Below the pieces are notes generated by a model. That model worked only from the letters and a program-made list of their open reading frames with translations, was not told the origin of the DNA and searched no databases. Position numbers and translations under genes: made by a program. Below, in pieces: positions 13,230-64,000 of a DNA stretch of 64,000 nt; the first letter of the stretch is position 1, and every line of letters begins with the position of its first letter. Source of the stretch: a virus (Duplodnaviria > Caudoviricetes); the IMG/VR virus record IMGVR_UViG_3300033175_000001, positions 1 through 64,000 of that record; one strand, 5' to 3'.

Positions 13230-13258
13230 ACAATATTTTATAATCTATGCTAAATCAA
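13230..13258 (-). promoter_or_regulatory. Possible sigma70 promoter TTGATT-N17-TATTGT for the lipoprotein gene
   Basis: Hexamers at 13258-13253 and 13235-13230; only a consensus-like match. Confidence 0.3.
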
Positions 13259-14390: not shown

Positions 14391-14394
14391 TATC

Positions 14395-16420: not shown

Positions 16421-17015
16421 CTTCTACCTCCAAATCACCTGAAAAATTGTTTACGTTCCCCCATACTGGAGCATCACTACACCCGCACCTACAAATATTT
16501 CCATTCGGCTTAACGAATATATGCCAATCGGCGCAGTCTAAATCTCTGCCCTCTTCGGCTGCCCTTCCTGCGTTTAACATATATGGAAATGTAAACGTCC
16601 TACCTGAAAATAGCTCAAGCACTTCAGCATCAATATCTTCATGAAACCTATCTCTTGCAATGAATACAGCCAGTTTAGGCGAAGATACAGCTGCCAAAGA
16701 TTGCATCGCCGCAACTGCTTTGCCGTTAGTCTGAACAATAACCTTCTCTAAAGAAGAAGCTATTGCTATAGTTACAAAATCAATGAAACTGGGATGAATC
16801 GAAGGTTCCCCGCCTGAAATTATTACTTCTGTAAAACCTTCCTGTAAAAATAACTGAATTACTGATAAAAAGGTTTCCTGCGTCATAAATACTGAACTTT
16901 GAGATGCTGCAGGAGCAGATAAATTGCAGCACTCACACTGCATATTGCAGTCTTCGGTTAATTGAACGTAGACTTGCTTACTTCTCAGAACCCTACGTTG
17001 ACTTACTTCTCTCAT
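16359..17015 (-). CDS. Radical SAM protein with Twitch/SPASM-like tail
   Basis: CNMQCECC, SGGEP, QTNG, C...FVKPNGNICRCGC. Confidence 0.85.
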   Translation of the reverse strand: MREVSQRRVLRSKQVYVQLTEDCNMQCECCNLSAPAASQSSVFMTQETFLSVIQLFLQEGFTEVIISGGEPSIHPSFIDFVTIAIASSLEKVIVQTNGKAVAAMQSLAAVSSPKLAVFIARDRFHEDIDAEVLELFSGRTFTFPYMLNAGRAAEEGRDLDCADWHIFVKPNGNICRCGCSDAPVWGNVNNFSGDLEVEDECPRFEQTNRRIFEYLHRR

Positions 17016-17024
17016 TTCGCCCTC

Positions 17025-17669
17025 CTAATACTGAACTCTATCTGGACGGAGTTTAACGCCAGACTCTATCTTCGCTCTCAACGATGGTGACTTGCAACCT
17101 GTAAATACTAAAAGCCGTGGGTCTACCGTAAAAATATTACCTATTGAGGGTGCGTCTAAGCAACCGCAGCCCCGCACATCACCGTCAGGTTTAATATAAA
17201 TATTAGGTGAAATGCAAGCGTACGCATTGCCGAAATCTTTTCCCCTGCCAGTCCTCCCTACAAAATGAGAAGTTAATAAATGCCCCTCATAAGCCTTATA
17301 TACCTCGTCGCTTACGCACTCATGGTACCTATCATAACTTACCATTGCCCGCAACTTTCCTTCTGAAGAGTCCGCCAACTTCTTTAATTTTAAAGCTACT
17401 TCGGTTATTTTACCGTTTATCGCTATAAGAATATACTTAAAATCCCTCTGTAATATTAACTCCGTCCATTCCAGAAAATTCTCATGCATTGTAGGCTCCC
17501 CGCCAGTTAAAACTACCCTGTCTGGATTTATACTTTCGAGGACATCCAAACATTTTACATAAGTTTTAAAATCCATAGGACGTTCGTACCCTACCTCCCC
17601 TTCGACTGTTGAATTCTGCGAACAAAAGGCACAGTGCATATTACATTGTGTTAATAATTGAATGTGCAT
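17025..17669 (-). CDS. Radical SAM protein with Twitch/SPASM-like tail, paralog of the neighbour
   Basis: CNMHCAFC, TGGEP, C...YIKPDGDVRGCGC. Confidence 0.85.
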   Translation of the reverse strand: MHIQLLTQCNMHCAFCSQNSTVEGEVGYERPMDFKTYVKCLDVLESINPDRVVLTGGEPTMHENFLEWTELILQRDFKYILIAINGKITEVALKLKKLADSSEGKLRAMVSYDRYHECVSDEVYKAYEGHLLTSHFVGRTGRGKDFGNAYACISPNIYIKPDGDVRGCGCLDAPSIGNIFTVDPRLLVFTGCKSPSLRAKIESGVKLRPDRVQY

Positions 17670-17870
17670 CTAAAATACCTTCGCCCTTCCAGCTTTTAAA
17701 TCCTCCATTATCTGCCTTGCCTCCTTCTCCGTATTACCGTCTGGTTCAAATGCCTCTTCGGAAATAATGAACTGATCCAGAATAAACTGAGGAATATTAT
17801 TCCTGTCTTCTACAATAATGGCATTCCTTCTTCCTGTAGTTTTATGGGTTACATAAATAGTGTCCATCAA
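17670..17870 (-). CDS. 66-aa peptide paralogous to the N-terminus of the DUF4376 protein
   Basis: KTTGRRNAIIVEDRNNIPQFILDQF versus KQTGEYSNIFIEDSSNIPSFILNNF. Confidence 0.7.
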   Translation of the reverse strand: MMDTIYVTHKTTGRRNAIIVEDRNNIPQFILDQFIISEEAFEPDGNTEKEARQIMEDLKAGRAKVF

Positions 17871-44117: not shown

Positions 44118-44247
44118 ACTCTAACTCCTGCAATAAATTTTCTACATATTCTAAAGCGAGCCTCTCTGCCCGCCTTAATTTCACACGTTCTCTTGCCTCA
44201 TCAGCCTCATCATTTAAAGGATTACTTCTTATTTTTTCAAAAGGCAT
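44080..44247 (-). CDS. 55-aa helical hypothetical protein
   Basis: Manual translation MPFEKIRSNPLNDEADEARERVKLRRAERLALEYVENLLQELEYGKESCATELTA; TAATG overlap. Confidence 0.55.
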   Translation of the reverse strand: MPFEKIRSNPLNDEADEARERVKLRRAERLALEYVENLLQELEYGKESCATELTA

Positions 44248-45731
44248 TATACTACCTTCCTAAACTCTGGTTTATAAGAAGCCAGGTCAGACACTTTATC
44301 CAGGTCTACTACCTGAAAAGTCTCCGCCAACTTCTCTATATTTGAATGGCCTGAATTAGTATGTATATCCTCCAGGCAGATAAAATGGAACTTCATTCCT
44401 CTTCGCTTTAACTCAAGAAATTCCCCTGTCTCATAAATATCCGCCGTACCATCAGTAATGACGATCATATCGCTTTTATCCATGCCGTCAATTTCCTTAA
44501 ATATGTCATCAGCAGCAACGTGCATCGCCAAATCAATATTCGTTCCTCCCGAAGGATACTCATTAAGAATGTGTGTAAGGAAGTTGCCCCACTGAGAACG
44601 ATCAAATAGTTTATAGGCATCCCTTACATTGGAATTAAACCATCTGAAATAAAACGTACTCGCATCAGCGATGGCCTTCTTCCCGAGAGCTATCGCTACT
44701 GCTTTTATAAAAGCTATTCGATTGATATTAAGAGAAGGATAATAATCATCTGTTGACCCTGAGCTATCCAAAAGAGCGTACAATAACTGCTTCTGTTCTT
44801 TCCGTTCCTTATGCTGAAAAACACGGAGATCCCGGTTCATTATCTTTCTATCCATAATATCGTCTAAAGCCATGTCCATCTTAACTGCCCTGTTTACGTC
44901 CTTCATCCTTTTCATTCGAGAAATGGTGATATTGGACGCTACATTATCAGACTCCACCAGCTTACCCTTGCGGGCATGATTGAACGTAAACTCGATATTC
45001 CTGGCAATCTCGAACATCTCAAGATACTGCTGAGACCAAAGCTTATCAACCAGGTCAGAAATCTGAAGTTTATTCCCGATAGACTCCTTATAAAGAACCT
45101 CTACCGCTGAGCCCCCACGAGTGTATCCCTGACCTATAGCCTTCTGCTGATGAAAACTCGCATCCTGCTGATCGAACATGTGAGACATCATGAAACTGAA
45201 ACCTTTAAAGAACTGAGAGGTCATTGCCATCTGGCCGGCATCTGCAGGCACTTCTATCTGACCTGCTGAAGTCTGACCCTGAATATTATTAACTCCTCCA
45301 GACTGAGTATTAGCCAGCTCTGCCATATCTCCCTTAACATCTCTCGGAGTAGAAGCATGCCCAACCATCGCATCAAGAATTTTAACCATTAACTCAAACT
45401 TCTCTTCCAACCTTAGAAAAGGGTCATTCTTCAACGCCCGGGCAAACCCTGAATCTGCAAAATCTATCAGATCAAGCCTCATCGTAAAAAGCTCGGCTTC
45501 ATACTGCCTCATATTCTTTATTGAATTTTTAAGGTAAGCCCTCGTAACTTCGTTCACCAAATCCTGAACAGTCACAAGAAACTTCCACATGATGTCATAG
45601 CCCTGTGCCACTATAAACATCAAATCCTGGTAAAAATCACCTCCGATCTTACTTGCATTGGGATACTTACTCAGCGTATCCTCTACGATCTGCTTATAAA
45701 AAGGAGGAAGTTCTATTTTCAAAAACCTCAT
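44247..45731 (-). CDS. VWA-domain protein (ViaA-like)
   Basis: MIDAS motif LLDSSGS, SGGTNI, IVITDG. Confidence 0.85.
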   Translation of the reverse strand: MRFLKIELPPFYKQIVEDTLSKYPNASKIGGDFYQDLMFIVAQGYDIMWKFLVTVQDLVNEVTRAYLKNSIKNMRQYEAELFTMRLDLIDFADSGFARALKNDPFLRLEEKFELMVKILDAMVGHASTPRDVKGDMAELANTQSGGVNNIQGQTSAGQIEVPADAGQMAMTSQFFKGFSFMMSHMFDQQDASFHQQKAIGQGYTRGGSAVEVLYKESIGNKLQISDLVDKLWSQQYLEMFEIARNIEFTFNHARKGKLVESDNVASNITISRMKRMKDVNRAVKMDMALDDIMDRKIMNRDLRVFQHKERKEQKQLLYALLDSSGSTDDYYPSLNINRIAFIKAVAIALGKKAIADASTFYFRWFNSNVRDAYKLFDRSQWGNFLTHILNEYPSGGTNIDLAMHVAADDIFKEIDGMDKSDMIVITDGTADIYETGEFLELKRRGMKFHFICLEDIHTNSGHSNIEKLAETFQVVDLDKVSDLASYKPEFRKVV

Positions 45732-45740
45732 GGCTGCCTC

Positions 45741-46913
45741 CTAAAATAAATCCTCATCTTTAATCTGCATTTCGCCCTTAAACTTATCTACCTTCATTTT
45801 AAGAGCCTCTATAAGAGGGATGAGTATTTCAGCGGATGAATCGTTCTGCAGCTCGCCGATCATCTTATCGCACTTTTTCGACAGCCCAAGAACAACCTTG
45901 TACTTCTTAGAAACATCAGTCTCAGACTTATTCGCATCAAACAGCGACTCCATCTTCTGAATAACTTCCGACTGAGCAAGAGACTGCTTCACCTTCAGAA
46001 AGATAGTATCAAAATAACCTATACCCTTTACATCGCCGCCTTCAACGAGCCCGAACTTTATAGTCTCTATATCATCAATAGTTACATCCGCAACTCCGCC
46101 ACGCAGAAACACCGATGCCTTAATTATCTTCAGCATCTTATTCTTTTTCCTGGGCGACATTTTTACATTCGCCTGCGCTTCGTACTCTGAAATGATCCTG
46201 TCATAAATAAGAAGCATCCCGTTTGAAAAATTAGGTTTAAACTCATCGAAGGCTTTAATTACCGCCTGAACATCATCAAACGCAATAACTGGTTGGGTAT
46301 TCTCCGTCACATCTGAAAGGTAATCACGGTACATGTCCATTCTCTTATGAACATCCGCCAGCTCCTTAACATCCGATTTGAAAATAATCCTGTCATACAC
46401 CGCCCGGAGTTCCTTCTCTGATTCCCTCTCCTGATTCGTGGTCATTATAGCTGTGATAAGCGGACATTCTACTTTCTGGAACGGTCTGGTAAAAGTCCTT
46501 TCATTCAAAGGCTCAAGAGTAGCAACCAGAGTTTCCTCACTGGCGTTAAAAAACTCATCCAGAAAACCGAAATGCGCTGTTATCAGCGAACCGGTAATGT
46601 TATGAACTACCCTACCCTGCTTAAACTCATCGAGAAGCTGAGGGCCGAATACATAAGAATCATCCTGCATCCTTGTAAACTGATTCTTGTAAACCTCTGC
46701 TCCTTCGATACCGTTAAAGACCTTCAAAGCCAGCATTGACTTAGCTGTTCCAGGAACGCCTTTCAGAAGTACATGCTCCTGCATCAAAATAGCGTACCTG
46801 ATCTGATTGACTTCCCATTCCCTTTCGTAAAATATCCCGTTAATCTCTTCAAAAAACTGATTGTACTCATCAACGGGAATCTGCTGTGACACGTTCTTTG
46901 ACTGCTTTGCCAT
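45741..46913 (-). CDS. MoxR/RavA-family AAA+ ATPase
   Basis: HVLLKGVPGTAKS, FLDEFFNAS, LNERTF, AVYDR. Confidence 0.88.
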   Translation of the reverse strand: MAKQSKNVSQQIPVDEYNQFFEEINGIFYEREWEVNQIRYAILMQEHVLLKGVPGTAKSMLALKVFNGIEGAEVYKNQFTRMQDDSYVFGPQLLDEFKQGRVVHNITGSLITAHFGFLDEFFNASEETLVATLEPLNERTFTRPFQKVECPLITAIMTTNQERESEKELRAVYDRIIFKSDVKELADVHKRMDMYRDYLSDVTENTQPVIAFDDVQAVIKAFDEFKPNFSNGMLLIYDRIISEYEAQANVKMSPRKKNKMLKIIKASVFLRGGVADVTIDDIETIKFGLVEGGDVKGIGYFDTIFLKVKQSLAQSEVIQKMESLFDANKSETDVSKKYKVVLGLSKKCDKMIGELQNDSSAEILIPLIEALKMKVDKFKGEMQIKDEDLF

Positions 46914-51221: not shown

Positions 51222-51725
51222 TTACAACCTCGCTACAGGATCAAGGTATTCCATTAAACCAAGCTTTTCTAAAATCCACGCTTCTTTTTTGCCCAGACCA
51301 AGAGGATTACCCTCTAAATCAAATAAATCATATTGATTCAAAGTTAAATCCAAACTCCTTGCCTTATTCCTGCAGATAATATTAAACTCCTTAGAACCTG
51401 TCAAAAACAATAGCCCCGCTCCCCATTCTTTTGAACTAAAAAATCTTATATTCACAGGAAAACCGTCCAAATCAAAATCAAGATTTCTTGAACCCATTGC
51501 CCATGGATTCCCTCCAAATTTACCAACATGCCAATGCCACCAACAAACATCCTGGTCAAAAGCTACGATATCAATATCCCCGACAGTTTCTGCTCCTCTT
51601 CTAAAACTGCCAGCTATTTCAAACTTCAGCCCTAAAGATTTAGGCTCTTCCAAAAAGGAAGAGACCCTTTTTAGGGCCTCCTCTCTACCAAATCTTATAT
51701 TATCATTTTTTATCGATTTCTTCAT
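51222..51725 (-). CDS. Minimal family X DNA polymerase (palm and thumb only)
   Basis: IAGSFRRG..TVGDIDIV, LLFLTGSKEFN, LTLNQYDL, EAWILEKLGL. Confidence 0.88.
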   Translation of the reverse strand: MKKSIKNDNIRFGREEALKRVSSFLEEPKSLGLKFEIAGSFRRGAETVGDIDIVAFDQDVCWWHWHVGKFGGNPWAMGSRNLDFDLDGFPVNIRFFSSKEWGAGLLFLTGSKEFNIICRNKARSLDLTLNQYDLFDLEGNPLGLGKKEAWILEKLGLMEYLDPVARL

Positions 51726-52420: not shown

Positions 52421-53530
52421 TCACATATTATTGTATTCAGTTCGCAACTCTGCTCTTCGTGATACCGCATCTGCCCTCGCTGCTTTAGCGTCCCTCAAAC
52501 GTGATTGCAGGTTCTGGATTTCAAGTCTATCTTCTAAAGGCAACGCACCCTGCCGACCGGCCCTGATATTTAAAATCTGTTCGGTAAGCGTTCGTACCTT
52601 CTCGTCCATAGTGGCTACAATAGCCTGCTGCTCACGCCACATATCATACACTTCCCTCTTACGCTGTTCCATTTCAGGATCAATTTCACTCGGGTCTCGC
52701 CGTGCAGCTTGGTAAGGAATCGGCACAACCTTACATCTACAATACGGGTGAGAATTTGGAACTTCGCCTACTCGAAAAATACCTTCTCTATGAACCAAAG
52801 GCAACTCTCGATATGGAACAAAGATAGAAGTAGCAAACATTCTGCAAATCGGGCAGGTCTTCTTATCTCCGACAGCCATCCACTTAACGTACCCTATGCC
52901 TGCTTCCTCTGCCACATACTCTGTAATTTTACGCTGCGACCTTCCTACTTCTGAAGCAATAAGTCTGTCAGTTGACCTGGATAAAGAAAATGAATTATAC
53001 CTCCCTCCATCTTCATAGTACCCTCTTCGAGTACCTTTAAGAGTATCTAAAATTTCTTTCGCTTTCTTCTTTTGGGTAGCCTCATCGCCTACTTTACGAA
53101 TACGGTTAATCCCTCTCGTCAAATCTCTCTCAAATCTATTTACTATCCTGGTAAGCCTTTGCTTCCTGGTCATGCCGAGAAAACTTTCCCGATTATACTT
53201 AGAAACAAATTTATCTTCAAGAGCCCTCGCCTGCGCCGGTGTAAATTTAATTCCTCGTTTAGCCAGCATTTCAGCATGATCCTTTATGGTCTTTTTAACC
53301 ATGGATCGAATATTATCATCAAGGACAGAATTTATATTATCCCTATAAGAACGAACAGCCGAAGTAACTACCTCCCTGATCTTCTTATTCTTGGAGGCAG
53401 TAGTTCGGCTATTTGCAATCGCTACAATACTCTGGACATCTGGAAAATTCCGAATTTCCTGTTTCCTTTTATTCAGAGCCCTTATAACAATCTGATAATT
53501 AAAGTCCCTCTGCTTTTTGGTTATTGCCAT
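52421..53530 (-). CDS. Head morphogenesis protein (Mu gpF/SPP1 gp7-like)
   Basis: WMAVGDKKTCPIC...HPYCRC. Confidence 0.75.
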   Translation of the reverse strand: MAITKKQRDFNYQIVIRALNKRKQEIRNFPDVQSIVAIANSRTTASKNKKIREVVTSAVRSYRDNINSVLDDNIRSMVKKTIKDHAEMLAKRGIKFTPAQARALEDKFVSKYNRESFLGMTRKQRLTRIVNRFERDLTRGINRIRKVGDEATQKKKAKEILDTLKGTRRGYYEDGGRYNSFSLSRSTDRLIASEVGRSQRKITEYVAEEAGIGYVKWMAVGDKKTCPICRMFATSIFVPYRELPLVHREGIFRVGEVPNSHPYCRCKVVPIPYQAARRDPSEIDPEMEQRKREVYDMWREQQAIVATMDEKVRTLTEQILNIRAGRQGALPLEDRLEIQNLQSRLRDAKAARADAVSRRAELRTEYNNM

Positions 53531-53533
53531 TCA

Positions 53534-55420
53534 TTACTTCCCCGGAGGGCTAAAAGTCCTCTTCTTCGCTATAGGCTGAGTCTGCTTTGTAGGAACTCCC
53601 TGAACCAATCCGGCCTCACCCTGCTCTGAAGCCTTATATGCCCGATACTCTTCCATCTCAAGATCAACCGGCTTCTCTGCAACCCTCTCAGACTCCTCAT
53701 CAGCCGGCAATTCTTCCGGTAACTCCTCTCCCATTAAAACGCCAGAACCTTCTTCTGCAGCAAAACCTTCTCCGACCATTTCCCTCATGTTATCAGCAGT
53801 AAACTCTCCCATGGACTCCACTTCAAACATTTTATCTTCTTCAATCTCTTTGAATTTAGCGTCTATATCCTTAATACCTCGACGACGCATTGCTCCTTTT
53901 TTCGACTCAATGCCCATCTCCATCTCCATCTGAAGTTCCTGAAGTTCCTGCATTGAATCCCTCGGAAGATATTCAGCCCACTTTATTTCAACTTTATAGT
54001 AAGGATTAAATGAAAGCTCCTGATACAATTTATAGACCATATCATCTTCCTGCGCCATTAAATCATCTTCCTGAGTATCAGTACTCTCCGCAACCTCCAC
54101 CTCTTGAGTAATCCTTATTTCTTCGAGCTGATCCCGCACATTAACATACCTGTCAACTCTATCCTGAAGATTAAGATTGAGATTAGTGTCAAGCATCTTC
54201 AAAGCATATTCGTATATCTGAACAAACCCGGCCTCATAACTTAAACGTTTCCTCCTGGTTAATCCTATCAATGGTAAATACTGTACCTGCAATGCTATAC
54301 CAGTAGCATTTGAAATATTCTGAAAAAGCCCACTCGATGCTTCCGGTATACCACTCGTCAGATAAGCAAAATCCTGAAGCTGTTCCATCAGATCCTTTAC
54401 AGCCGGAAAATTCTGCTGCCCGCCAAGCTGATCCACCTTTGCGTCCTTTGGAAACCCACTCCAAATCTTATTCGGTCCCCTGCGAAGATTCCCTATTTTT
54501 GCTCCGAAAATCAATGTTATAGGACTACCATGATATTTCACAGAATCAAGATATTGCGAAGCCGCCTCATTAAGATTCAGGTTAAGATCAACAATGTCTA
54601 CCAGATCACTTCTCCCATAAGTTTCCAGAGGAACTACCTGATTCCTAAAATGCACGACCGGAATAAAGCCCAAATCATTATCCGCCTCTTCTATAAGCTC
54701 CTGTTCAATATTATCAGCCGATATAGACTCTACCGTTTTGAACTTAAAAAGCTGCTTAAATAGTTTCTCCGGCTTCCACGAAGAATCTTCATTCTCATCA
54801 TCTTTCAGATACTCAACAAAAAGCTCTCGCTTTTCCTCCGTCCATACCTCTTTAAAAAGAACGTCCCTGACCGTACCATCCGGCCATGTGTACTCTCCTT
54901 CCCACACTATAACTGCTTGCTGAAGAACAGTCCTGTTCCTTTCAGACTTTCTGTACCGCACAAAGGTCTTTTCTGAATCCAATAACTGAAACCGCGGACT
55001 CTGTATATCCTCATCCCAGATAACTTTCACAAAAGAATCCCCACATACACTTGCGTTCGTAACTACTTCAAGAGCAAATAATTCAATACCTGATTTCTTG
55101 TTGATATAAGCTATCACCGGAGCCATCAGCTTTGAATACGCATCTGGAGCATAGACAGTAAAAGGTTTGCCGACAAGAAAATCAGCACTCCTATCTACAA
55201 AAGCCTTTGCCAGATTTATCTTTACATCCTTTGGATTCTTCATCCTCGGATCAATATGAATCATATCATTCCGATAAGACTCCCAAAATTTTCTATAAAG
55301 AGTTATTCTATAAAACTCCCGGATAAAATCTGGGTCATCTTTGAACAACTCCAAATCAACATCCATCTTATTCAAATAAAGACTTACCTTATCATATAAA
55401 TCCAAATAAAAATTTCCCAT
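53534..55420 (-). CDS. Portal protein (SPP1 gp6-like)
   Basis: NLAKAFVDRSADFLVGKP, GDSFVKV, PVVHFRN..YGRSDL, SGIP, ATGIAL. Confidence 0.88.
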   Translation of the reverse strand: MGNFYLDLYDKVSLYLNKMDVDLELFKDDPDFIREFYRITLYRKFWESYRNDMIHIDPRMKNPKDVKINLAKAFVDRSADFLVGKPFTVYAPDAYSKLMAPVIAYINKKSGIELFALEVVTNASVCGDSFVKVIWDEDIQSPRFQLLDSEKTFVRYRKSERNRTVLQQAVIVWEGEYTWPDGTVRDVLFKEVWTEEKRELFVEYLKDDENEDSSWKPEKLFKQLFKFKTVESISADNIEQELIEEADNDLGFIPVVHFRNQVVPLETYGRSDLVDIVDLNLNLNEAASQYLDSVKYHGSPITLIFGAKIGNLRRGPNKIWSGFPKDAKVDQLGGQQNFPAVKDLMEQLQDFAYLTSGIPEASSGLFQNISNATGIALQVQYLPLIGLTRRKRLSYEAGFVQIYEYALKMLDTNLNLNLQDRVDRYVNVRDQLEEIRITQEVEVAESTDTQEDDLMAQEDDMVYKLYQELSFNPYYKVEIKWAEYLPRDSMQELQELQMEMEMGIESKKGAMRRRGIKDIDAKFKEIEEDKMFEVESMGEFTADNMREMVGEGFAAEEGSGVLMGEELPEELPADEESERVAEKPVDLEMEEYRAYKASEQGEAGLVQGVPTKQTQPIAKKRTFSPPGK

Positions 55421-55431
55421 GGCCGCCTCCG

Positions 55432-55926
55432 TTAAACAAAATACACTCCGTAAATGAATCCCTTATGAATACATTTACTTGCAAAATCCATAATCTCACT
55501 ATGCTCCCAAAAAGAAACACGTTCCGTAAACACGTTCCCGAACTGCGGCCCCTGAGATATAGGTTTCAAAGGTAAACACATAAGCAAACGTCCCTTCAAA
55601 GAATTTATTATCCGCATTGCTTCGTCTTTCTTCATTTTATCAAATACATTAAATCCTAAATACAAATCATAAGGCTCACACCAAAAATCAAATTTTCTTG
55701 CGTCACCCAACATTATATTACGATAAACCGGAAGACCAAAAATGGCTCTCTTATAAGCCTTCTCTATGCTACGCTCATCTATATCCACCGCATCAATAAC
55801 AACACTGGGCAAAAGCTCTTTTATGAACTCGCCCAGTGCTCCCCAACCACAACCTATATCCAAGATAATCCGGGGCTGATCACCCTTTAAAAAATCAGCA
55901 GTAGACTTTAAATACTTCCTATCCAT
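55432..55926 (-). CDS. Class I SAM-dependent methyltransferase
   Basis: ILDIGCGWG, DAVDID, GDAR. Confidence 0.8.
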   Translation of the reverse strand: MDRKYLKSTADFLKGDQPRIILDIGCGWGALGEFIKELLPSVVIDAVDIDERSIEKAYKRAIFGLPVYRNIMLGDARKFDFWCEPYDLYLGFNVFDKMKKDEAMRIINSLKGRLLMCLPLKPISQGPQFGNVFTERVSFWEHSEIMDFASKCIHKGFIYGVYFV

Positions 55927-56689
55927 GCGCTTCAGCTTCTAATCGACAAATTGCCAGAAGCCTTTCAGCGGCACTTGGACCAAGAACCTTTGAAACAATT
56001 TTAGCTTCATCTCCGTAAAAAGAGAAGTTGAACCTGAAAATATTCATTGCCTCTCTTTTTAACGTAGCCATCTCTTCCTGAGACTTTGCCTTCTTTATAA
56101 GCTCTTCCTGTTTCCTGACCGCATCGGACGCTGCCTCGCTACCCACAAAAACCTGTGACCGATCAACAGAATTTCCATTTGAATCTTTCAGGATTTCAAA
56201 CTGCTCATTGAACTCCTCATTAGCAAGAAGCTGAGGATCATTTATTTCATTCAATAACTTGCTCATTTCCACATCATCGAGCATTAAAGAATCCTGCGCT
56301 TCATCAAGAGCTCCCATCTTAACAAGATCACGAAGAACTGCAGCAGCCAGCTCTGCATCTTCTTCTCCGCGCGCCCTGTTATGCCGGAGAGTAGCAATCT
56401 TCATCTGCTCATCCGTCATCTCAACAAGGACACACGGAATTTCAGTGAACCCTACCGACTGAGCAGCTCGCCATCTATGCTCACCATCAACTATAACCAT
56501 ATCCTGCTTTCTTACCAGAGCTGGAGTAGTAAATCCATCCTCTTCAATAGACCTGCACAAAAGCTCAAACTCATGTTCAGACTGCCTATTCGGATTATAA
56601 GCATTCGGCTTAATATCGTTAACATTGATGTATACAACATCAAGATTCTCTAAAACCACATTGTTCTTTGCTATTTCTTTCTTAGCCAT
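55919..56689 (-). CDS. ParB/Srx-like protein (YbdM/IbrB-like), copy 2
   Basis: YNPNRQ, EDGFTTP, IVDGEHRWRA, TLRHNRARG. Confidence 0.85.
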   Translation of the reverse strand: MAKKEIAKNNVVLENLDVVYINVNDIKPNAYNPNRQSEHEFELLCRSIEEDGFTTPALVRKQDMVIVDGEHRWRAAQSVGFTEIPCVLVEMTDEQMKIATLRHNRARGEEDAELAAAVLRDLVKMGALDEAQDSLMLDDVEMSKLLNEINDPQLLANEEFNEQFEILKDSNGNSVDRSQVFVGSEAASDAVRKQEELIKKAKSQEEMATLKREAMNIFRFNFSFYGDEAKIVSKVLGPSAAERLLAICRLEAEAHG

Positions 56690-57587
56690 TTATTACTTCC
56701 TCCTTCTGAGATTCCTCTGTAGCAAAATGGGCTTCATACTTCTTACAAAGCTCAACCAACTTAACTGCAGGTTGAAGGCCCAGGACTTCCTTAACAATTT
56801 TTGCCTCATCCCCTGTATAAGAAACTGCTATACGGTAGATATCCTTTTTTATCTCAAAAAGAATTTTCGATTTTTCCGACTCGTTATCAACCAATGCCGC
56901 CTTCTGCTCGGCCAGTTTTACCGCCTCAACGACCTTCTGTGTAGAAGCCTCCATCCTCTGTGGATCAACCTGCTTTGCCTCTACTGATACTGTAGACTCT
57001 TTGCTCTTTGAGGAAATCCACGATTCGCTGTAATCCTCGCCTGCCAGACCCTCTGGAACAGGTATATCATCCAGAAGAATTCTCATCTCTTCCTCTTCCA
57101 TCATCAATGAATCCTGCGCCCAATCCAGAGCGCCAAGTTCACGCAAGTCACGAAGCACTTCGGCTGAAAGAGCGATATCCTCGGAACCTCTTGCTCGGTT
57201 ATGCCTCAGAGTAGATATCCGCATCTGCTCCATAGTCATATCTACAAAAACAACAGGCACCTTATCGTAACCGAGATGCCTTGCCGCACGCCAACGGTGT
57301 TCTCCGTCTACGATAACCCGCTCATTCCTGATTGCAACGATAGGCTGAGTAAATCCATCCTCAGTCATCGATTTAACCAGAAGCTCAAAGTCCCTCGGGT
57401 CCTGTCGATTAGGGTTATATGAATTTGGTTTTAATTCAGCCACATCCACATAAACCACTTCCAATCTTTCGAGGGCTTTCGCCGTCTTCTCAACTGCTCT
57501 TCGTCCACGCTCCCTTATCTCCGGCTGAGGTCGCTGCCCGTCCGGGATAGGATTCCGTGTGCTTTGTTTTTCTACATCTACTGCCAT
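56682..57587 (-). CDS. ParB/Srx-like protein (YbdM/IbrB-like), copy 1
   Basis: YNPNRQ, EDGFTQPIV, IVDGEHRWRA, TLRHNRARG. Confidence 0.85.
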   Translation of the reverse strand: MAVDVEKQSTRNPIPDGQRPQPEIRERGRRAVEKTAKALERLEVVYVDVAELKPNSYNPNRQDPRDFELLVKSMTEDGFTQPIVAIRNERVIVDGEHRWRAARHLGYDKVPVVFVDMTMEQMRISTLRHNRARGSEDIALSAEVLRDLRELGALDWAQDSLMMEEEEMRILLDDIPVPEGLAGEDYSESWISSKSKESTVSVEAKQVDPQRMEASTQKVVEAVKLAEQKAALVDNESEKSKILFEIKKDIYRIAVSYTGDEAKIVKEVLGLQPAVKLVELCKKYEAHFATEESQKEEVING

Positions 57588-57600
57588 ATTTCCGGCCTCC

Positions 57601-58290
57601 TCATAAATTATTTATAGTACAGTGCGCCCCGTATTTAGACCGCCTATAAATTGTTGCTCTTGAACCAAACAGAGAATTTATCCTCTCTTTGTAATCCTGA
57701 TATGAAGGCATTTCATCAGATAAAAAATGCAATTCAAAAGTAGAGAAACGAGATTTCTTTAATATATCTACTCCCTCATCTGAGAAAAATAAACACTCCT
57801 CTCCTCCCTCGGCATCACATTTTAAAACAGCATTTCCGCCTTCAAATATATTTATGTATTTAGCGTGAAAATCTTTTATTCCCATTAAAGAAGCCAGTAC
57901 ATTCGATTCCTTACGAGCAAACGACTCTTTACCAACTGTAGAATATAACGAAGACCCGTTACTATGAACATTGAACGTACCAGGCTCAAAACCAATTCCA
58001 ATATTATATGATGAAACACCAGTTAAAAATTTTGTATTCTCCAAAAACATCTGATGAGTTGATTTTACAGGTTCAAAAGCAAACACCTTTGCGCCTGGAT
58101 ATAGCTTCTTAAATAACCTTGTAAATACCCCTATATTTGCTCCTACATCAAAACAAACTGTATTATCGAACTCTCTGCCTTTAATCCTGTAAGAATCGTC
58201 ATCAAATAATTCTTCGATGGTCAACTTCAAATCCATTTTATTATCAGTAATAAATTTACCCATTGAATTATGCTCATAAATATCTATCAC
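57601..58290 (-). CDS. FkbM-family methyltransferase
   Basis: FDVGANIG, FAFEP, LKCDAEGGE. Confidence 0.85.
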   Translation of the reverse strand: MIDIYEHNSMGKFITDNKMDLKLTIEELFDDDSYRIKGREFDNTVCFDVGANIGVFTRLFKKLYPGAKVFAFEPVKSTHQMFLENTKFLTGVSSYNIGIGFEPGTFNVHSNGSSLYSTVGKESFARKESNVLASLMGIKDFHAKYINIFEGGNAVLKCDAEGGEECLFFSDEGVDILKKSRFSTFELHFLSDEMPSYQDYKERINSLFGSRATIYRRSKYGAHCTINNL

Positions 58291-58294
58291 GCTA

Positions 58295-59020
58295 TCACCT
58301 CAATGCATATCTAAATAATTGACCGAGAACACCCGGATCATCCAAAAGTTGCTCTTTTGAAAATCCTGCATACTTGGTGTCCCTTAGATAGCTATTGAAT
58401 ATAGCAGCAGCGTAAGTTTCAGAATTTACCCACGGAGAAATATCTCCTTTCCCTGAAAAAATAACGCTCATATCCGCTCCCGTAAAAGGCTGCATCTGCT
58501 TATAACTAAAATGTCGATACTTCCTGCCTTTTAACGCTTTTCGAGAAGCATGAAAGTTAAAGGCAAACTTATGCATCTGCTTACCTTCCCTTTCACGATT
58601 CAACGCTTCAGCTATATTCTTTAGCCAACTTGTAATTATGTGTCCTCTGGCACGACTACCAAAAATACCGTTAGCTATCTTACCCTGCTCCCAACCATAG
58701 CCAAAAAATTCAAAATCATCGAACACGTCGAATAAAGGCTGCACACTACGGAAAACAACAGTATCTATATCCATCCATATACCGCCGTTGTAAAAAAGAA
58801 GTACAACTCGAATAAAATCACTCACCGTCGCTATATCCGGCAAACTCCATACATCGTCCCGAATTTCCACAGGAATAAACTGATTCAAATTACTTCTATT
58901 TACGATATGCACTGGATGGCCTGCGGAATGCTTCTTAATTGTATCAAGGCAAAGATCAATATACTCAGGAGTACCGTAATCTTTTAAAGGTTCCCAAAAT
59001 AGCCATATTGCGTCATTCAT
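58295..59020 (-). CDS. DXD glycosyltransferase (GT32/capsular polysaccharide synthesis-like)
   Basis: IWLFW..P.YIDLC..TI, SDFIRV.LL...GGIWMDID. Confidence 0.85.
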   Translation of the reverse strand: MNDAIWLFWEPLKDYGTPEYIDLCLDTIKKHSAGHPVHIVNRSNLNQFIPVEIRDDVWSLPDIATVSDFIRVVLLFYNGGIWMDIDTVVFRSVQPLFDVFDDFEFFGYGWEQGKIANGIFGSRARGHIITSWLKNIAEALNREREGKQMHKFAFNFHASRKALKGRKYRHFSYKQMQPFTGADMSVIFSGKGDISPWVNSETYAAAIFNSYLRDTKYAGFSKEQLLDDPGVLGQLFRYALR

Positions 59021-59644
59021 TTAGTCTGCCCCCATTGAAAACGTCCGGCTATTTCGAGGTCTGCCAAAACAATTCTTCGCAGTACCGAGCGTTGAATCCA
59101 TATCAATATTATGATCAACCAAATTCGGAACACATATTGCATAATCCTGCTTCACTTCTTTCAGATACTTACCTAAAAGAGAATCGTGCCCCTCCTTCTC
59201 GTCATAATAAGTATCCTCATAGTCGCTCGCCCATGAAAGCCACTTACGGGCAAAATCATACCTAAATGCTGCCGCCTGATCCCACAGGTAGGTAGCACCT
59301 TTTTCGATCTGCCACCTTCTATCATCTTCAGGAAAATCCATAGGGCGGAAATACTGAAACAATTTGAAACCCAATAACTCCGCCTCTTCTATACGCTTTA
59401 AAGCCTTTGAATAAAAATCATTACAAAGTATTATATCGTCCTGAAACATTACGATCCATCTCGCGCCGGATTCAAAACCCTGCCTGAGAGCTTTAACATG
59501 GCTCCATACAGTTCCCTTCATATAAGGATCGTAAAATTCATTTAGACCAGGAACAGCTTCAAAAACATTCCTGGCATCAAAGCCCTGCTCTTTCCTTTTC
59601 TGGCAAGTAACGACCACCCAGTAAACATCATGTTCCGATATCAT
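59021..59644 (-). CDS. GT-A fold glycosyltransferase (GT25-like)
   Basis: SHVKAL, IVMFQDDI, PNLVDH. Confidence 0.6.
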   Translation of the reverse strand: MISEHDVYWVVVTCQKRKEQGFDARNVFEAVPGLNEFYDPYMKGTVWSHVKALRQGFESGARWIVMFQDDIILCNDFYSKALKRIEEAELLGFKLFQYFRPMDFPEDDRRWQIEKGATYLWDQAAAFRYDFARKWLSWASDYEDTYYDEKEGHDSLLGKYLKEVKQDYAICVPNLVDHNIDMDSTLGTAKNCFGRPRNSRTFSMGAD

Positions 59645-60879
59645 ACTGCAGCCTCCGTCATCTTTGCCCTGTTCTCAGGAGTATACCACCAATAAGTCCC
59701 GGGAAAAGCTACAAGTATAGGCTTCTCGGCCTTAAAAACACCACCAGTAGGTTTAAAAGTACTGGGTTCAACATAATCCAGCCCCAGGTAAGAATTAAAC
59801 GGATCGCCGTCCCATGCTTTATGAGTTAAATCTTTCCAAGACCCAAGTAAACCACAAGGCATACAACTGGCAACGTCCGGAAAAGGAGTAGTCGAATGCT
59901 TTGCATGCCTTCTGAGAACATTCGCCCTGACACGCTTCGCCCTATCAGCTACCCATAAAGGTGCCTCCTCTATACACGTCCTCTGAAAACATTCTTCCCA
60001 GGTCTCATTTAAACGCCGCTGCGGAGTACAAGTCTGAAGACCAAATTTAGCTGCAGTTCTTATCCCCGGAATCCTCTCAGCAACACGGTCAAACCAATGA
60101 GGCCATGCTCGCATTGCGATAGATAATTGCTGGATAGCAGCACCATTAAGAGTAACAGGTGCAATACGCATGCCATGAGCAGGCACACCCATTTTAAACA
60201 TGACATCATACGCTTCATTATAATCCCAACCGTTATCTCGAATTGACTTCCACACATCCCCATCACGCCAATCATATATCGGCCAGGTATTACGAACTTC
60301 TCTTGTGCGCTTATCATCCGAATTATATTTTGATGTAATAAAGTCTCCCTGCATCGATGCAAGACTCATTGCCCGTTTTGGAGACTCCTGAACCCTGATA
60401 CCGATAACATCAAACATATCTACGCCATCCCGTGTGGGTAAATCCGGTAATTGATCCAAGGTACAAAGGTCATATAAATCTTTCGTCCGAGTTATCTGTT
60501 CTGCGTAAGGAGGCGGTTTCCTCACCCACTTATCCTCCGGGATATCTGGGTCAAATGCCCACCAATAAGGCTGTTCCCTATTGAACGGATTGGTGTTCGG
60601 ATTATTCATATAACACCAGTGGAAATCAACTTCGCTGGTTCTGTTTGCAACCCGTTCAGCGTATTCATAAGTCCCTGGGTACATAATCTCTTCATCATTC
60701 ATTATTGTAGTAACCGGAAGCCTACCCATTTTCTTTGCAACCATGACAGCAAGCTCCAGACACACCGCTGAATCCTTGCCTCCAGAAAATGATACAACTA
60801 CATCTCCCTGTTCAAAACAATACTGAAGTCTTGTCAGAGCCCTCTCGAAAACATTCTGCCCTAAATATAATCTTGCCAT
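59641..60879 (-). CDS. PAPS-reductase-like PP-loop protein (YbdN/IbrA/DUF3440-like)
   Basis: SFSGGKDS, DEEIMY, IGIRVQESPKR, WPIYDW..DVW, YN..YD. Confidence 0.85.
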   Translation of the reverse strand: MARLYLGQNVFERALTRLQYCFEQGDVVVSFSGGKDSAVCLELAVMVAKKMGRLPVTTIMNDEEIMYPGTYEYAERVANRTSEVDFHWCYMNNPNTNPFNREQPYWWAFDPDIPEDKWVRKPPPYAEQITRTKDLYDLCTLDQLPDLPTRDGVDMFDVIGIRVQESPKRAMSLASMQGDFITSKYNSDDKRTREVRNTWPIYDWRDGDVWKSIRDNGWDYNEAYDVMFKMGVPAHGMRIAPVTLNGAAIQQLSIAMRAWPHWFDRVAERIPGIRTAAKFGLQTCTPQRRLNETWEECFQRTCIEEAPLWVADRAKRVRANVLRRHAKHSTTPFPDVASCMPCGLLGSWKDLTHKAWDGDPFNSYLGLDYVEPSTFKPTGGVFKAEKPILVAFPGTYWWYTPENRAKMTEAAV

Positions 60880-60881
60880 AT

Positions 60882-61577
60882 CTACCTCAGCTTTGTTATA
60901 GAATAACCTTTCTTATCAAACATCTTTGAAATGTTAGCTATCTTTCTTTTATTAAATTCAAGCCCAAAACATTGGACGCCGCTGTCAATAAACGGAGGCC
61001 AAAAAGACGCCTCTCCTACAAACATATCCAACAGCTTCTTTGGACGGATATTTCGATTTAAAAAATTCGGAATATATAATCCCTTCTCACTATGCTTGCC
61101 ATTAGGATCATCATCCCATTCAGGGGCCTCTACCCCATCTACAAAAGTTCCTACCCACAAGCAGTATTCAATACCGCTTCCATAAGTAGGAAAAAACATA
61201 TTGAACTGTTTCGCCCCATATTTATCGAGCCTGGGCTTTAATTGCTCCATACCTTTTATACCCATCTCAATAGCAACATACTTGGAAGAATAATTCTTGC
61301 AGGCGAAAGCAATACCCTCTAAAAGATTCTCAAACCCATTCTTCGGAAGCTTATCCATACCTACCCATTCCCGGAACTGATTCGCTATCCTTGTATCCCA
61401 TGGCGGGTCAGTATAAATAAGATCTGCTCGTTCTTCCCCCATTAAAACTTCAAGCGCCTTTGGACTAAACGGAGCACAAATATACCTATGCTTCAGTTCT
61501 CCTGCTTCGTACATCTCACCCGGCTGAATAGGAAACTTCTCCCAGGCATCTCCGTACATTTGATCTGCTTCCATCAC
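60882..61577 (-). CDS. Amino-methyltransferase-like protein (DPPW) with degenerate SAM motif
   Basis: HRYIC...LMGEERADLIYTDPPW; LLDMFVGEAS; GLEF. Confidence 0.65.
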   Translation of the reverse strand: MMEADQMYGDAWEKFPIQPGEMYEAGELKHRYICAPFSPKALEVLMGEERADLIYTDPPWDTRIANQFREWVGMDKLPKNGFENLLEGIAFACKNYSSKYVAIEMGIKGMEQLKPRLDKYGAKQFNMFFPTYGSGIEYCLWVGTFVDGVEAPEWDDDPNGKHSEKGLYIPNFLNRNIRPKKLLDMFVGEASFWPPFIDSGVQCFGLEFNKRKIANISKMFDKKGYSITKLR

Positions 61578-62104
61578 TTAACCTCCGAAACTGGAAAAAT
61601 ATAATCTACAAAACAAATAGCTACCAGCACCGTACCGTGCTGCTTCTTTGGAATAATAGTTTCGACTATAAGCTCTTCATCTTTAAGAAAGAACTCATCT
61701 GAATAGCCGTTAAAATAAATCTCCTGCAGAGCTTCCCTCAATTCAAGGGACGCCTCTTCTTTTAACTTTGGACCGTTATATTCACAAACGATCCCGCCAT
61801 ACTTCTCTTCAGTCTCTTTATTATAAAGCCAACCATAAATAATGCCGGCTGTACCTACTTCCCCTTTACCACAAGTACACACACCCATAATTGCTTCCAT
61901 AACCGAACCATGTGTCAACTTTTTAGGTTTGGGAATTTCCTTAGCCTCACCCGGAAGTATTGAGGAATACTGCATAATATTACACATCTCAATATCAGCA
62001 TCCTTTAAAGCCATGTGATAAGACCCGGCGTGTATAGTTATATCACTCTCCCCTTTACCGGTCGTTACAAAAAAATTTCGGGGAACTCTTTGCCCTACTA
62101 TCAT
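61574..62104 (-). CDS. pdaD: Pyruvoyl-dependent arginine decarboxylase
   Basis: FFVTTGKGE, SYHMAL.DADI..CN..YS-SILP self-cleavage site. Confidence 0.85.
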   Translation of the reverse strand: MIVGQRVPRNFFVTTGKGESDITIHAGSYHMALKDADIEMCNIMQYSSILPGEAKEIPKPKKLTHGSVMEAIMGVCTCGKGEVGTAGIIYGWLYNKETEEKYGGIVCEYNGPKLKEEASLELREALQEIYFNGYSDEFFLKDEELIVETIIPKKQHGTVLVAICFVDYIFPVSEVK

Positions 62105-62826
62105 TAACTGACCCTCCTCGCTAAAAATACTATTATACCATCATAACCCCTTGAATAATCGCAATCCATGGAGAAAGACTTAACCATTTTAAAATCACTA
62201 TCGAGAAAACCAATAATTTCCATCATATCAACTGGAAACGCTGAGTACTTAACTTTTCCAACTTTATAAAACTCGGCGTTCCTCAAAGCTGCCATTACTA
62301 TGTACTTATCCGCTGCGGACTTAATATTGGAAAAAAGCTGAGAATAATCTACATAATTATCCGTTATACTTTCGATACAAAAACACGACGATACCAAATC
62401 CGCCTTTGTAGGAATTCCGCCCAATACATTTAGCTGCTTAAATTCAATATCTAAATCAAGCATCCGCCACTCGATAAATTCTTTTGTTGTACCCTCGATA
62501 TCAGCTACATAATTTAAAAAATCATTCCAATCAAATCGTGAAGGTGAACACTTGAACCACTTAGCCACCTCCATCAGATTACTCTTACTAAAATCTGAAA
62601 ATAACACCCTTCCGGCCTTATTACTTGCACTCATGAGTTGATAAATAGTAGGGCCTCCGCCAACTTCAAAAATACTTAAGCCATCATCAATATCTTTATA
62701 AATCTCGTGGAATGATTCTAAAAGAAATTTATTCTCCTCGTCGCAACTCGAATAATATTCATTCAAATATCTTCTTGAAGAAAAATCCGTAAAATCAACA
62801 CGCTTATCCTCTAAAACAATCATCAC
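62104..62826 (-). CDS. NNMT/PNMT/TEMT-family small-molecule N-methyltransferase
   Basis: F..R.YL..YY, GGGPTIYQLMSA, DF...N..E..KW.....FDW, FC.E, FYKVG..KY. Confidence 0.85.
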   Translation of the reverse strand: MMIVLEDKRVDFTDFSSRRYLNEYYSSCDEENKFLLESFHEIYKDIDDGLSIFEVGGGPTIYQLMSASNKAGRVLFSDFSKSNLMEVAKWFKCSPSRFDWNDFLNYVADIEGTTKEFIEWRMLDLDIEFKQLNVLGGIPTKADLVSSCFCIESITDNYVDYSQLFSNIKSAADKYIVMAALRNAEFYKVGKVKYSAFPVDMMEIIGFLDSDFKMVKSFSMDCDYSRGYDGIIVFLARRVS

Positions 62827-64000
62827 TCCGTCCTATGAAAAGTGGCTTTATTCACCACAAGTTTTCCTTCTCTCGCTGCACGTCGAACATTATCAAAACC
62901 ACGAATTTCAGAAATATCCATCCTGTCAATAATATCCTCTACATAATTTATAGAATCATCATTTGGATCAGCATTCAATGAAAAATAATTGGGAGATTCA
63001 ATCGCAGAACCCATATTAACGGCTTCTTCAGCAGCATTAAGAGCGAGAAAGAAACTTTGTACGTAGTCATCCTTCGCTCCCTTATAAGTACCATGACGAA
63101 TAATCATTTTATCATTTTTCCATACTTTCTCCGCATCAAGCAACTGCACCATAAATTTATTATACTTGCGCGTCTTTTTCGCTGAAGCATGGGAAGGAAT
63201 GCGAATATTTTCATGGTTCAAATTCTTATAAAATAACTGCGCCAACTTATGCTGATTCTGCAAAGAGAAATAAACAGGCTGAACATGCACATCCCTATAT
63301 GCTAACCTTCTTGAAACCATCTCATGTATCGGGTCGCCGACACCGGTTGAGTCTATGCTTAAAACCTGCAAGGTATCGTACCGCTTACACACCCTCACAA
63401 TATCATCTACCTGAGATTCCCAGTTATCTCCTTCCCATTCAAACCATGCGGATACCTGCTTATAATACATATCAGCGTCCACAAAAACAGTTGCAGCCTC
63501 CTCGCTTTCCTCATCGCCCATAAGTTCTATATACCTTCTCGGCGAAGTATCCCGACGAACAAGTTTTATGATAGTAAGAACAGTACTGTCATACTTTTTA
63601 CCAAGGTCAAGGCCGGCAACATACATAAACCTATTATCGGGAGAACTTTCCAACTTCAAAGAAGTTGCCTTCATCTTCCGTTCAAAGTCAGCCGACGTAA
63701 TTGCCATACCTTTCTGAAGTAGCCACTCCAGCTTATACGACATCCTAAAATAATCGGAATCCTCACCGTACCTTGATTTTTCTTTCTGTATCCAACGTGC
63801 ATACCGTTCATTATATTTACTGACGACGGTATAATCAAACTCAAAATGATTTTTAACCTTATTCTTGGATAACTGAGATATTCGTTTATTTCGAGTAATT
63901 GCTTCGAGGAACTCACACTGCCTCATGTGGGGAGTGCCAAGTTTTATGATAGTTGCAGAAGTAGCTGCCCCCATCGGGTGGATACTTTTAAGTACCTTTT
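62823..64000 (-). CDS. Terminase large subunit, 5'-truncated by the window edge
   Basis: Frame is open to the edge (KVLKSIHPMGAA..IIKLGTP); nuclease motif AGLDLGKKYDST; KDDYV. Confidence 0.85.
   Translation of the reverse strand, partial: KVLKSIHPMGAATSATIIKLGTPHMRQCEFLEAITRNKRISQLSKNKVKNHFEFDYTVVSKYNERYARWIQKEKSRYGEDSDYFRMSYKLEWLLQKGMAITSADFERKMKATSLKLESSPDNRFMYVAGLDLGKKYDSTVLTIIKLVRRDTSPRRYIELMGDEESEEAATVFVDADMYYKQVSAWFEWEGDNWESQVDDIVRVCKRYDTLQVLSIDSTGVGDPIHEMVSRRLAYRDVHVQPVYFSLQNQHKLAQLFYKNLNHENIRIPSHASAKKTRKYNKFMVQLLDAEKVWKNDKMIIRHGTYKGAKDDYVQSFFLALNAAEEAVNMGSAIESPNYFSLNADPNDDSINYVEDIIDRMDISEIRGFDNVRRAAREGKLVVNKATFHRTE

Follow-up and report, generated by a model that had tools for sequence, protein, structure and literature searches.

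Why would a tailed phage place a predicted arginine decarboxylase among genes for putative DNA-directed enzymes, between its terminase and its portal? The locus raising this question, from an uncultured sludge phage, lies in the IMG/VR virus record IMGVR_UViG_3300033175_000001 (Duplodnaviria; Caudoviricetes), a linear record of 77,324 bp estimated to be about 80% complete, whose first 64 kb form the window, i.e. the whole stretch of 64,000 nucleotides analysed here. Ten minus-strand genes, called here g1 to g10, fill the interval between large terminase and portal from position 62826 down to 55432, according to both the listing of open reading frames (ORFs) and our own translation. The original prediction of ten abutting or overlapping genes carrying a set of modification-type domains is borne out by ORFs, Pfam, PHROG and family models, neighbouring genes overlapping by at most 8 bases and standing at most 13 bases apart. 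The interpretation given with it is supported in part.

Our preferred reading, to which we give somewhat less than an even chance, is that one phage lineage has enlarged the IbrA/IbrB module, widespread in phages, into this cassette, which acts as a DNA-directed modification machine fed with agmatine. The usual module consists of a PP-loop ATP pyrophosphatase and a ParB-like DNA-binding protein, often together with a small DPPW amino-methyltransferase-like protein and an S-adenosylmethionine (SAM) methyltransferase, and is normally encoded beside terminase genes. What is new here is the enlargement of the IbrA/IbrB core by a decarboxylase, an NNMT-like enzyme and tailoring enzymes.

By sequence, the PP-loop gene g4 (59641..60879) and the ParB-like paralogues g8 (56682..57587) and g9 (55919..56689), which lie about 2 kb downstream of it on the same strand, correspond to the IbrA/IbrB pair. 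g4 matches phrog_2302 (E 3e-55) and the Pfam family PAPS_reduct (E 3e-13), named after 3'-phosphoadenosine-5'-phosphosulfate (PAPS) reductase, and carries the PP-loop motif SGGKDS within SFSGGKDS. PAPS_reduct was the only family that Pfam reported at E up to 0.01, and the DUF3440 domain previously assigned to g4 was not among its matches. g8 and g9 carry PF02195 (E 7e-12 and 6e-15, respectively) and match phrog_2159 (E 1e-31 to 2e-34 across the two, 2e-34 for g8). They are 44% identical to each other and, over their full length, 39-54% identical to the one ParB that distant IbrA modules encode. The motifs DGEHRWRA and TLRHNRARG of g9 are invariant, and the best PDB neighbours of its model are Noc, CDP-bound ParB and KorB, sulfiredoxin and a free serine kinase ranking lower. 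Both paralogues also show weak matches to the ParB/Srx-fold serine kinases SerK and SbnI. A predicted complex of g9 with g4 scored 0.01, which counts neither for nor against binding.

To get a wider view of this core, 80 IMG/VR and 80 GTDB loci were fetched with a 38-row alignment and scanned with our own profiles. A ParB gene lies at most 3 kb from the g4 homologue in 157 of these 160 loci, the three exceptions being contigs that end right after the PP-loop gene; the pairing of ParB with PAPS-reductase-like proteins invoked by the original prediction is thus general. At least two ParB-like frames are present in 30 loci and a class I methyltransferase of 240 aa in 21, and common neighbours include terminases of three families, an SNF2 helicase, GNAT and a cupin protein. 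Many of the IMG/VR loci (L032-L074, 28-35% identity to g4) have ParB-like genes on both flanks of the PP-loop gene, so that the doubling of ParB is not peculiar to this cassette.

Numerous g4 homologues at 45-50% identity are found on phage-sized contigs, and the best matches among GenBank phages, 27-32% identical and annotated as IbrA or PAPS reductase, come from phages of Streptococcus, Mycobacterium, Microbacterium and Flavobacterium. Four of the distant modules (L014, L017, L018 and L019) share the gene order class I methyltransferase (233-255 aa), PP-loop enzyme and ParB, with a g3-like gene ahead of ParB in some of them. Terminase genes come next in L018 and L019, the small terminase directly after ParB in the latter. 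SMC-like genes beside distant modules were considered as DndD candidates and rejected, being the SbcC/SbcD-type pair of phages. Prophage hosts of g4 homologues include Kapabacteria (47% identity), Lachnospiraceae, Bacteroides, Enterobacter and Clostridioides. The 5.46-Mb chromosome of one Kapabacteria metagenome-assembled genome holds two copies of a module made of class I methyltransferase, IbrA-like, g3-like and ParB genes (L100 and L101), each with 47% identity to g4; they probably represent two prophages, which gives a hint of the hosts that the clade can use.

What chemistry could g4 perform? In its AlphaFold model (pLDDT 86), the N-terminal domain matches flavin mononucleotide adenylyltransferase (FMNAT), CysD and reductases of PAPS and of adenosine 5'-phosphosulfate (APS) at Z 12-15. 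TilS comes lower, at Z 10-11, within a group that also holds NcsA, GMP synthetase and LarE (Z 9.5-11), and asparagine synthetases reach Z 5.6-8.5. On this model, the fold leans to adenylyl transfer onto an oxyanion rather than to TilS-type chemistry. In the analogy with TilS drawn by the original prediction, the PP-loop part stands, by motif and by fold, while the closeness to TilS gives way to the FMNAT/CysD/PAPS branch. The C-terminal 170 residues form a conserved helical domain whose C339, C342, H325 and H328 do not vary among 38 homologues; it had no counterpart among the PDB matches listed. A phmmer search of g4 against PDB sequences returned nothing. Scores stay at 19-22 bits under the CysH equivalog models (cut-offs 154-165) and at 28.7 bits under that of DndC (cut-off 290), and matches to BrxP, DndC and SspD are weak and partial.

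The third gene, g3 (60882..61577), has no Pfam match when searched alone. A full HMMER scan of 1.8 billion representatives gave 165 relatives of about 220-240 aa, and the resulting family profile matches the DNA methyltransferases CcrM, DpnA, M.MboIIA and M.RsrI with E-values from 1e-8 to 2e-5 (best about 1e-8). DPPW, i.e. motif IV, occupies residues 57-60 and is near-invariant across 42 relatives. It precedes motif I, which is the beta-class order of PF01555-type N6-adenine/N4-cytosine DNA methyltransferases. Motif I itself is relaxed, reading FVG-EAS in the window against GxG in most relatives, and the second glycine is missing in several relatives too; its state showed no covariation with the presence of the decarboxylase. 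Among the 160 other loci, nine carry a g3-like gene with their g4 homologue. Another idea, that g3 is an N6/N4 carboxymethyl-transferase drawing on a CmoA-like enzyme, found no support: the 77-kb record gives no match to the CmoA model TIGR00740 at E up to 1, and the class I methyltransferases of the distant modules give no CmoA match, although a CmoA of the host could serve.

The feature that sets this cassette apart is its putative agmatine arm, formed by g2 (61574..62104) and g1 (62104..62826). g2 scores 98.9 bits (E 4e-28) with PF01862, the family of pyruvoyl-dependent arginine decarboxylases, against a curated cut-off of 22.7, and lies below the strict cut-offs of the NCBIfam equivalog models. 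It is about 60% identical to cellular enzymes from DPANN archaea, Bacteroidota and Spirochaetota. Aligned to the Methanocaldococcus jannaschii enzyme (1n2m/2qqd), its YSSILP falls on ISSIMP, with the Ser-Ser cleavage site; N42 aligns with the active-site asparagine, and E107, in CEYNG, with the active-site glutamate, in MEYEG. We take the roles of these residues in g2 to be those described for the published structure of the M. jannaschii enzyme. g1 belongs to the NNMT/PNMT/TEMT family of small-molecule N-methyltransferases (PF01234, 106 bits against a cut-off of 25, E 2e-30). It matches human NNMT with E 8e-24, its cofactor loop GGGPTIYQL falling on GSGPTIYQL (GxGPTIYQ), and just reaches the model of GntF, the amine N-methyltransferase of guanitoxin synthesis (63 bits, cut-off 60). 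From these sequences, both g2 and g1 look active. As for the substrate of g1, agmatine is suggested by the position of the NNMT-like gene, which adjoins the decarboxylase gene in seven related loci, on either side of it.

Homologues of neither g2 nor g1 were found in 50,697 GenBank phage records, and neither gene is present in any of the 160 other IbrA loci. In a tree of 123 decarboxylase sequences, the phage copies group together in a single clade with 11 members (SH-like support 91), nested within the cellular enzymes, which indicates a single acquisition. Every phage decarboxylase with a readable context sits inside this cassette; the co-occurrence is perfect yet phylogenetically single. 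The link between decarboxylase and IbrA is one lineage's, with no repeated independent association.

This lineage could be followed in about nine related loci (L002/L008, L004, L005, L009, L010, L011, L012, L013 and L016), all uncultured and coming from sludge, digesters and wastewater. Scans of IMG/VR with single proteins or 4-row alignments gave one relative, and a metagenome scan added four short loci. The co-occurrence in related phages on which the original prediction hinged is therefore found, since the core of the cassette recurs in these loci, whose terminases are 63-100% identical to that of the window. The decarboxylase is the first or second gene past the terminase in every one of them. 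Wherever the contig continues, there follow the PP-loop enzyme and then the g5 transferase, two ParB paralogues, the small class I methyltransferase and the portal; L013 differs by three ParB-like frames and L005 ends inside its first. A g3-like gene is present in all related loci reaching that point, except L005. Decarboxylase, DPPW protein, PP-loop enzyme, GT-A transferase, both ParBs and the small class I methyltransferase thus constitute a constant core, around which vary the NNMT-like gene (seven loci), radical SAM enzymes, an FkbM gene of shifting position, extra copies of g5 or g10, and g6.

Compared with L002, the core proteins are highly conserved: 81% identity for the decarboxylase, 72% for g3, 76% for g4, 74 and 84% for the ParBs, against 69% for the terminase and 70% for the portal. 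Tailoring genes are swapped or just 32-45% identical. The most conserved protein of the cassette is g9, with 77-93% identity among related loci. L004 is near-identical to the window in some parts (a C-terminal terminase stretch of 165 aa 100%, portal 95%, g9 93%, g10 92%) and divergent in others (g4 58%, g1 and g5 32%), and nucleotide similarity vanishes over g5-g7; such mosaicism is typical of arms-race loci.

Several related loci show peculiarities of their own. A SPASM-type radical SAM enzyme with a partner of 171-173 aa is found in L005 and L012, and L016 ends within its radical SAM gene. In L013, which is without an NNMT-like gene, the SPASM-type enzyme of L005, L012 and L016 is replaced by a PhpK-family B12-binding radical SAM methyltransferase (L013:4349-5872, 420 bits). 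The decarboxylase gene of the same contig (L013:3102-3625), which has about twofold coverage, is split into two overlapping frames of 71 and 118 aa, reflecting either a sequencing error or a decaying gene. The terminase orthologue of L016 (L016:2657-5734) reaches 1025 aa and contains a LAGLIDADG homing-endonuclease domain, probably an intein.

Sequencing runs holding the stretch likewise come from sludge, wastewater and anaerobic-digester samples. In digester RNA libraries, contigs about 93-95% identical span nearly all of the cassette; as such libraries can contain DNA, these are weak hints that the cassette is transcribed. In some sludge runs, parts of the cassette are without cover, and in one run (X5) a single contig of depth about 3 seems to join position 56870 to 62587 with 21 foreign letters between. 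This junction would correspond to a variant without g1 to most of g8, and is too weak to call a deletion.

The remaining four genes encode putative tailoring enzymes. g5 (59021..59644) is a GT-A, GT25-like glycosyltransferase: it weakly matches a glucosyltransferase PHROG (phrog_854, E 4e-9) and contains QDD, its Atlas neighbours are viral nucleotide-diphospho-sugar transferases and GT25, its structure reaches TM 0.79 to a GT25 cluster, and its orthologue in L005 carries PF01755. It directly follows g4 in all loci of this lineage. g5-like genes also lie near g4 homologues in five of the 160 other loci, in lineages without decarboxylase, and a weak match occurs after ParB in L017. Since it always adjoins g4 and recurs with IbrA/ParB elsewhere, g5 is tied to the DNA module better than the decarboxylase is. 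The second transferase, g6 (58295..59020), is above the cut-offs of both PF05704 (Caps_synth, E 4e-13) and PF04488 (DXD, E 3e-7), and was seen, outside the window, in just one digester RNA library contig of about 93% identity. g7 (57601..58290; TIGR01444, E 2e-12; PF05050) is an FkbM-family methyltransferase with orthologues of 28-32% identity at other positions in L002, L012 and L013. g10 (55432..55926; Methyltransf_25, E 5e-9) is a small class I SAM methyltransferase, sometimes duplicated, with orthologues in every related locus reaching that point.

The gene content, the intact catalytic motifs, the conservation and the co-occurrence are observed. From them, we infer that the target is DNA, that an amine is ligated after adenylation, that this amine is agmatine and that the adduct is glycosylated. 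The module would be a post-replicative DNA-marking machine recruited to DNA by the two ParB paralogues. The DPPW protein g3 would handle a flipped base, and g4 would use ATP to adenylate an oxygen, either of the DNA itself or of a handle added to it; the amine would then displace adenosine monophosphate (AMP). This amine, agmatine, would be made on the spot from arginine by g2. Its tailoring would fall to g1 or, in sister phages, to radical SAM enzymes, and g5, g6, g7 and g10 would decorate the adduct with sugar and methyl groups. We read DNA as the target because g3 resembles beta-class DNA amino-methyltransferases, g9 folds like Noc, ParB and KorB, and the module adjoins terminase genes belonging to three types. 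In favour of the agmatine link are the unchanging place of the decarboxylase gene, its conservation above that of structural proteins and the presence in this cassette of every phage decarboxylase with a readable context. Attachment of agmatine to DNA appears plausible from these sequences, with a base carbonyl, an exocyclic handle and a backbone phosphate as candidate sites. A bolder version, in which IbrA-type PP-loop enzymes in general are DNA amine ligases and the present one joins agmatine, optionally N-methylated, to a base or backbone phosphate, the guanidino adduct being then glycosylated and methylated, we consider unlikely.

Several points weigh against the modification machine proposed here. 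The decarboxylase and the NNMT-like gene accompany IbrA in one phage lineage only, for which inheritance alone could explain the linkage, and IbrA/ParB modules do without the decarboxylase in all 160 other loci. A polyamine role is already accepted for phage-encoded arginine decarboxylases with a different fold (PMC9992855). In fold, g4 stands nearest to PAPS/APS reductases and to enzymes that transfer adenylyl groups to phosphate or sulfate, rather than to base aminases. An obvious acceptor for glycosylation is lacking as well, with no thymidylate-synthase-like, TET/JBP or CmoA gene in the 77-kb record (about 80% complete). The split decarboxylase gene of L013 also counts against this reading, though at such low coverage it may be an error. 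Finally, no biochemical function or chemistry for IbrA/IbrB was found in the literature searched.

Some of these points would fit a mosaic of independent cargo modules gathered at one insertion hot spot between terminase and portal, the main alternative, which we rate a little below our preferred reading. An IbrA/IbrB and methyltransferase module would then act on DNA, while the decarboxylase and the N-methyltransferase would raise free agmatine or methylagmatine, either serving as polyamine-type auxiliary genes or supplying packaged DNA with a counter-ion, and the glycosyltransferases with FkbM would act on virion proteins or on a host glycan. Phage-encoded arginine and ornithine decarboxylases are indeed documented polyamine auxiliary enzymes (PMC9992855), and glycosyltransferases near structural genes of mycobacteriophages are thought to glycosylate capsids (PMC11256854). 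Independence of the parts is also suggested by the 160 loci lacking the decarboxylase and by the coming and going of tailoring genes, g6 being limited to the window and its close contigs; as genes are tightly packed genome-wide, their overlaps in the cassette say little. On the other hand, the decarboxylase keeps a fixed position across the related loci and is among the most conserved proteins of the cassette, and phage decarboxylases whose context could be read are all in this cassette, with none in GenBank phages. Moreover, the invariable adjacency of g5 to g4 and its recurrence with IbrA/ParB elsewhere tie at least that transferase to the DNA module.

Much less probable is a small-molecule cluster, in which agmatine would be N-methylated, glycosylated and methylated further into a free guanidino-amine glycoside, with g4 as an adenylating ligase and the ParB/Srx proteins as small-molecule kinases. 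The GntF score of g1 points in this direction, as do the SerK and SbnI-type serine kinases that weakly match g8 and g9 and appear among the fold matches, and the many interchangeable methyltransferases, including the PhpK-like enzyme of L013, resemble natural-product tailoring. Yet g9 is closer to the DNA-binding Noc, ParB and KorB than to serine kinase or sulfiredoxin, g3 looks like a relative of DNA amino-methyltransferases, and the IbrA/ParB pair stands beside terminase genes in many phages. As for sulfur chemistry, with g4 as a PAPS reductase auxiliary or a DndC/BrxP-like phosphorothioation enzyme fed by the phage's sulfate-activation genes and the other genes unrelated, the Pfam name, the weak partial matches to BrxP, DndC and SspD, the APS kinase and weak ATP-sulfurylase-like genes at 13255-14462 and the usual counting of such viral genes as cysH auxiliary genes (bioRxiv 10.1101/2021.01.05.425418) speak for it, but it is the least probable of all given the scores far below the CysH and DndC cut-offs, the PP-loop SGGKDS, the lack of cysteine desulfurase, DndD or DndE in the cassette, an obligate partner that is ParB, often with a DNA methyltransferase-like protein, and the distance of 40 kb to the sulfate genes, which lie beside the tail fibre.

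As to the surroundings, every gene of the window is on the minus strand, with a strongly negative GC skew all along, and a nucleotide search of the cassette against GenBank phages gave no match. The upstream border is the large terminase subunit (62823..64000 in the window, extending to 64832 of the record; 669 aa; phrog_2, E 7e-20). Downstream, the portal protein (53534..55420; phrog_64, E 1e-38) is followed by a MuF-like minor head protein (52421-53530). A 167-aa protein with the palm and thumb motifs of DNA polymerase beta (51222-51725) has the head genes on one side and a DnaB-like helicase on the other, and a MoxR-type AAA+ ATPase (bpMoxR, E 3e-28) followed by a weak VWA-domain protein is found at 44247-46913, within the replication and structural region. 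Beside the tail fibre, a second accessory cassette (13255-17870) encodes the APS kinase (E 2e-45), the weak ATP-sulfurylase-like protein, an enzyme of sulfatase/phosphodiesterase fold and two radical SAM paralogues. Judging from these genes, the phage probably makes PAPS; no link was seen between this sulfate cassette and the one between terminase and portal.

IbrA/IbrB are among the commonest unexplained gene pairs of phages and prophages and are routinely mislabelled as sulfur metabolism. A lineage with a predicted amine factory of its own and changing tailoring enzymes provides a concrete hypothesis for the whole family, namely ATP-dependent ligation of amines to DNA. If true, it would mean a route of DNA hypermodification without hydroxymethyl or carboxymethyl handle, a new class of cationic hypermodification, and a function for the IbrA/IbrB pair of phages, prophages and E. 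coli K-12 (ybdNM). It would also be, as far as we know, the first use by a phage of a PF01862-type decarboxylase and an NNMT-type methyltransferase. If wrong, the decarboxylase/NNMT pair still extends the known phage polyamine enzymes.

How does the cassette compare with known systems? The closest is IbrA/IbrB itself, i.e. the E. coli ibrAB island, YbdN/YbdM of K-12 and the phage pair phrog_2302 and phrog_2159, to which g4 and g8/g9 belong, respectively. The cassette differs in that the pair is separated by three genes and the ParB is duplicated, in its position between terminase and portal instead of upstream of the small terminase, in the absence of a DUF3440 signal from g4 under Pfam, and in being joined to the decarboxylase, the NNMT-like enzyme and the glycosyltransferases. 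With Dnd and type 4 BREX (DndB/DndC, BrxP), whose proteins act on DNA, it shares the pairing of a ParB-like protein with a PP-loop PAPS-reductase-like enzyme; g4 remains far below the cut-offs of these families, and the ten genes include no desulfurase, DndD or DndE. Attachment of an amine to a nucleobase has precedents in tRNA. TilS, a PP-loop enzyme, activates the carbonyl of a base by adenylation and joins an amine to it, and agmatine is a natural nucleobase substituent in archaeal tRNA agmatidine, although TiaS, which forms agmatidine, does not belong to the PP-loop enzymes. Unlike these systems, the proposed substrate of the cassette is DNA, and TilS is just a mid-rank fold match of g4.

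Putrescinyl-, aminoethoxy-methyl- and diaminopropanyl-thymine start from 5-hydroxymethyl-deoxyuridine, provided by a thymidylate-synthase homologue, and then require a kinase and aGPT-Pplase enzymes. In this respect the cassette phage is different, as neither a thymidylate-synthase-like (PF00303) nor a TET/JBP (PF12851) match was found at E up to 0.1 in the 77-kb record, about 80% complete. The thymine systems show that phage gene clusters append amines to DNA bases after replication, evading restriction (PMC5889632, PMC13458397). The phage polyamine auxiliary enzymes (PMC9992855) resemble g2 in being pyruvoyl enzymes of phages that convert arginine to agmatine, as predicted for g2; those characterised have the AdoMetDC fold, whereas g2 has the PF01862 fold and is embedded in a cassette of putative DNA enzymes. 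A further comparison is with CmoA/CmoX/CmoY of Synechococcus phage S-B43, which produce carboxymethyl-cytosine and its glycine amide (PMC12783734). This system offers the nearest worked-out logic and a precedent for our reading: a DNA methyltransferase homologue provides the handle, to which an ATP-dependent, AMP-forming PP-loop amide ligase joins the amine, and genes for ParB-domain proteins are often found nearby (PMC12783734). The cassette likewise has a methyltransferase-like protein, a PP-loop enzyme and ParB. Its methyltransferase-like protein is of the amino (DPPW) type, unlike the C5-type protein of the Cmo system, g4 lies on the PAPS-reductase rather than the asparagine-synthetase branch, and the amine, glycine in the Cmo system, would here be agmatine made by the phage.

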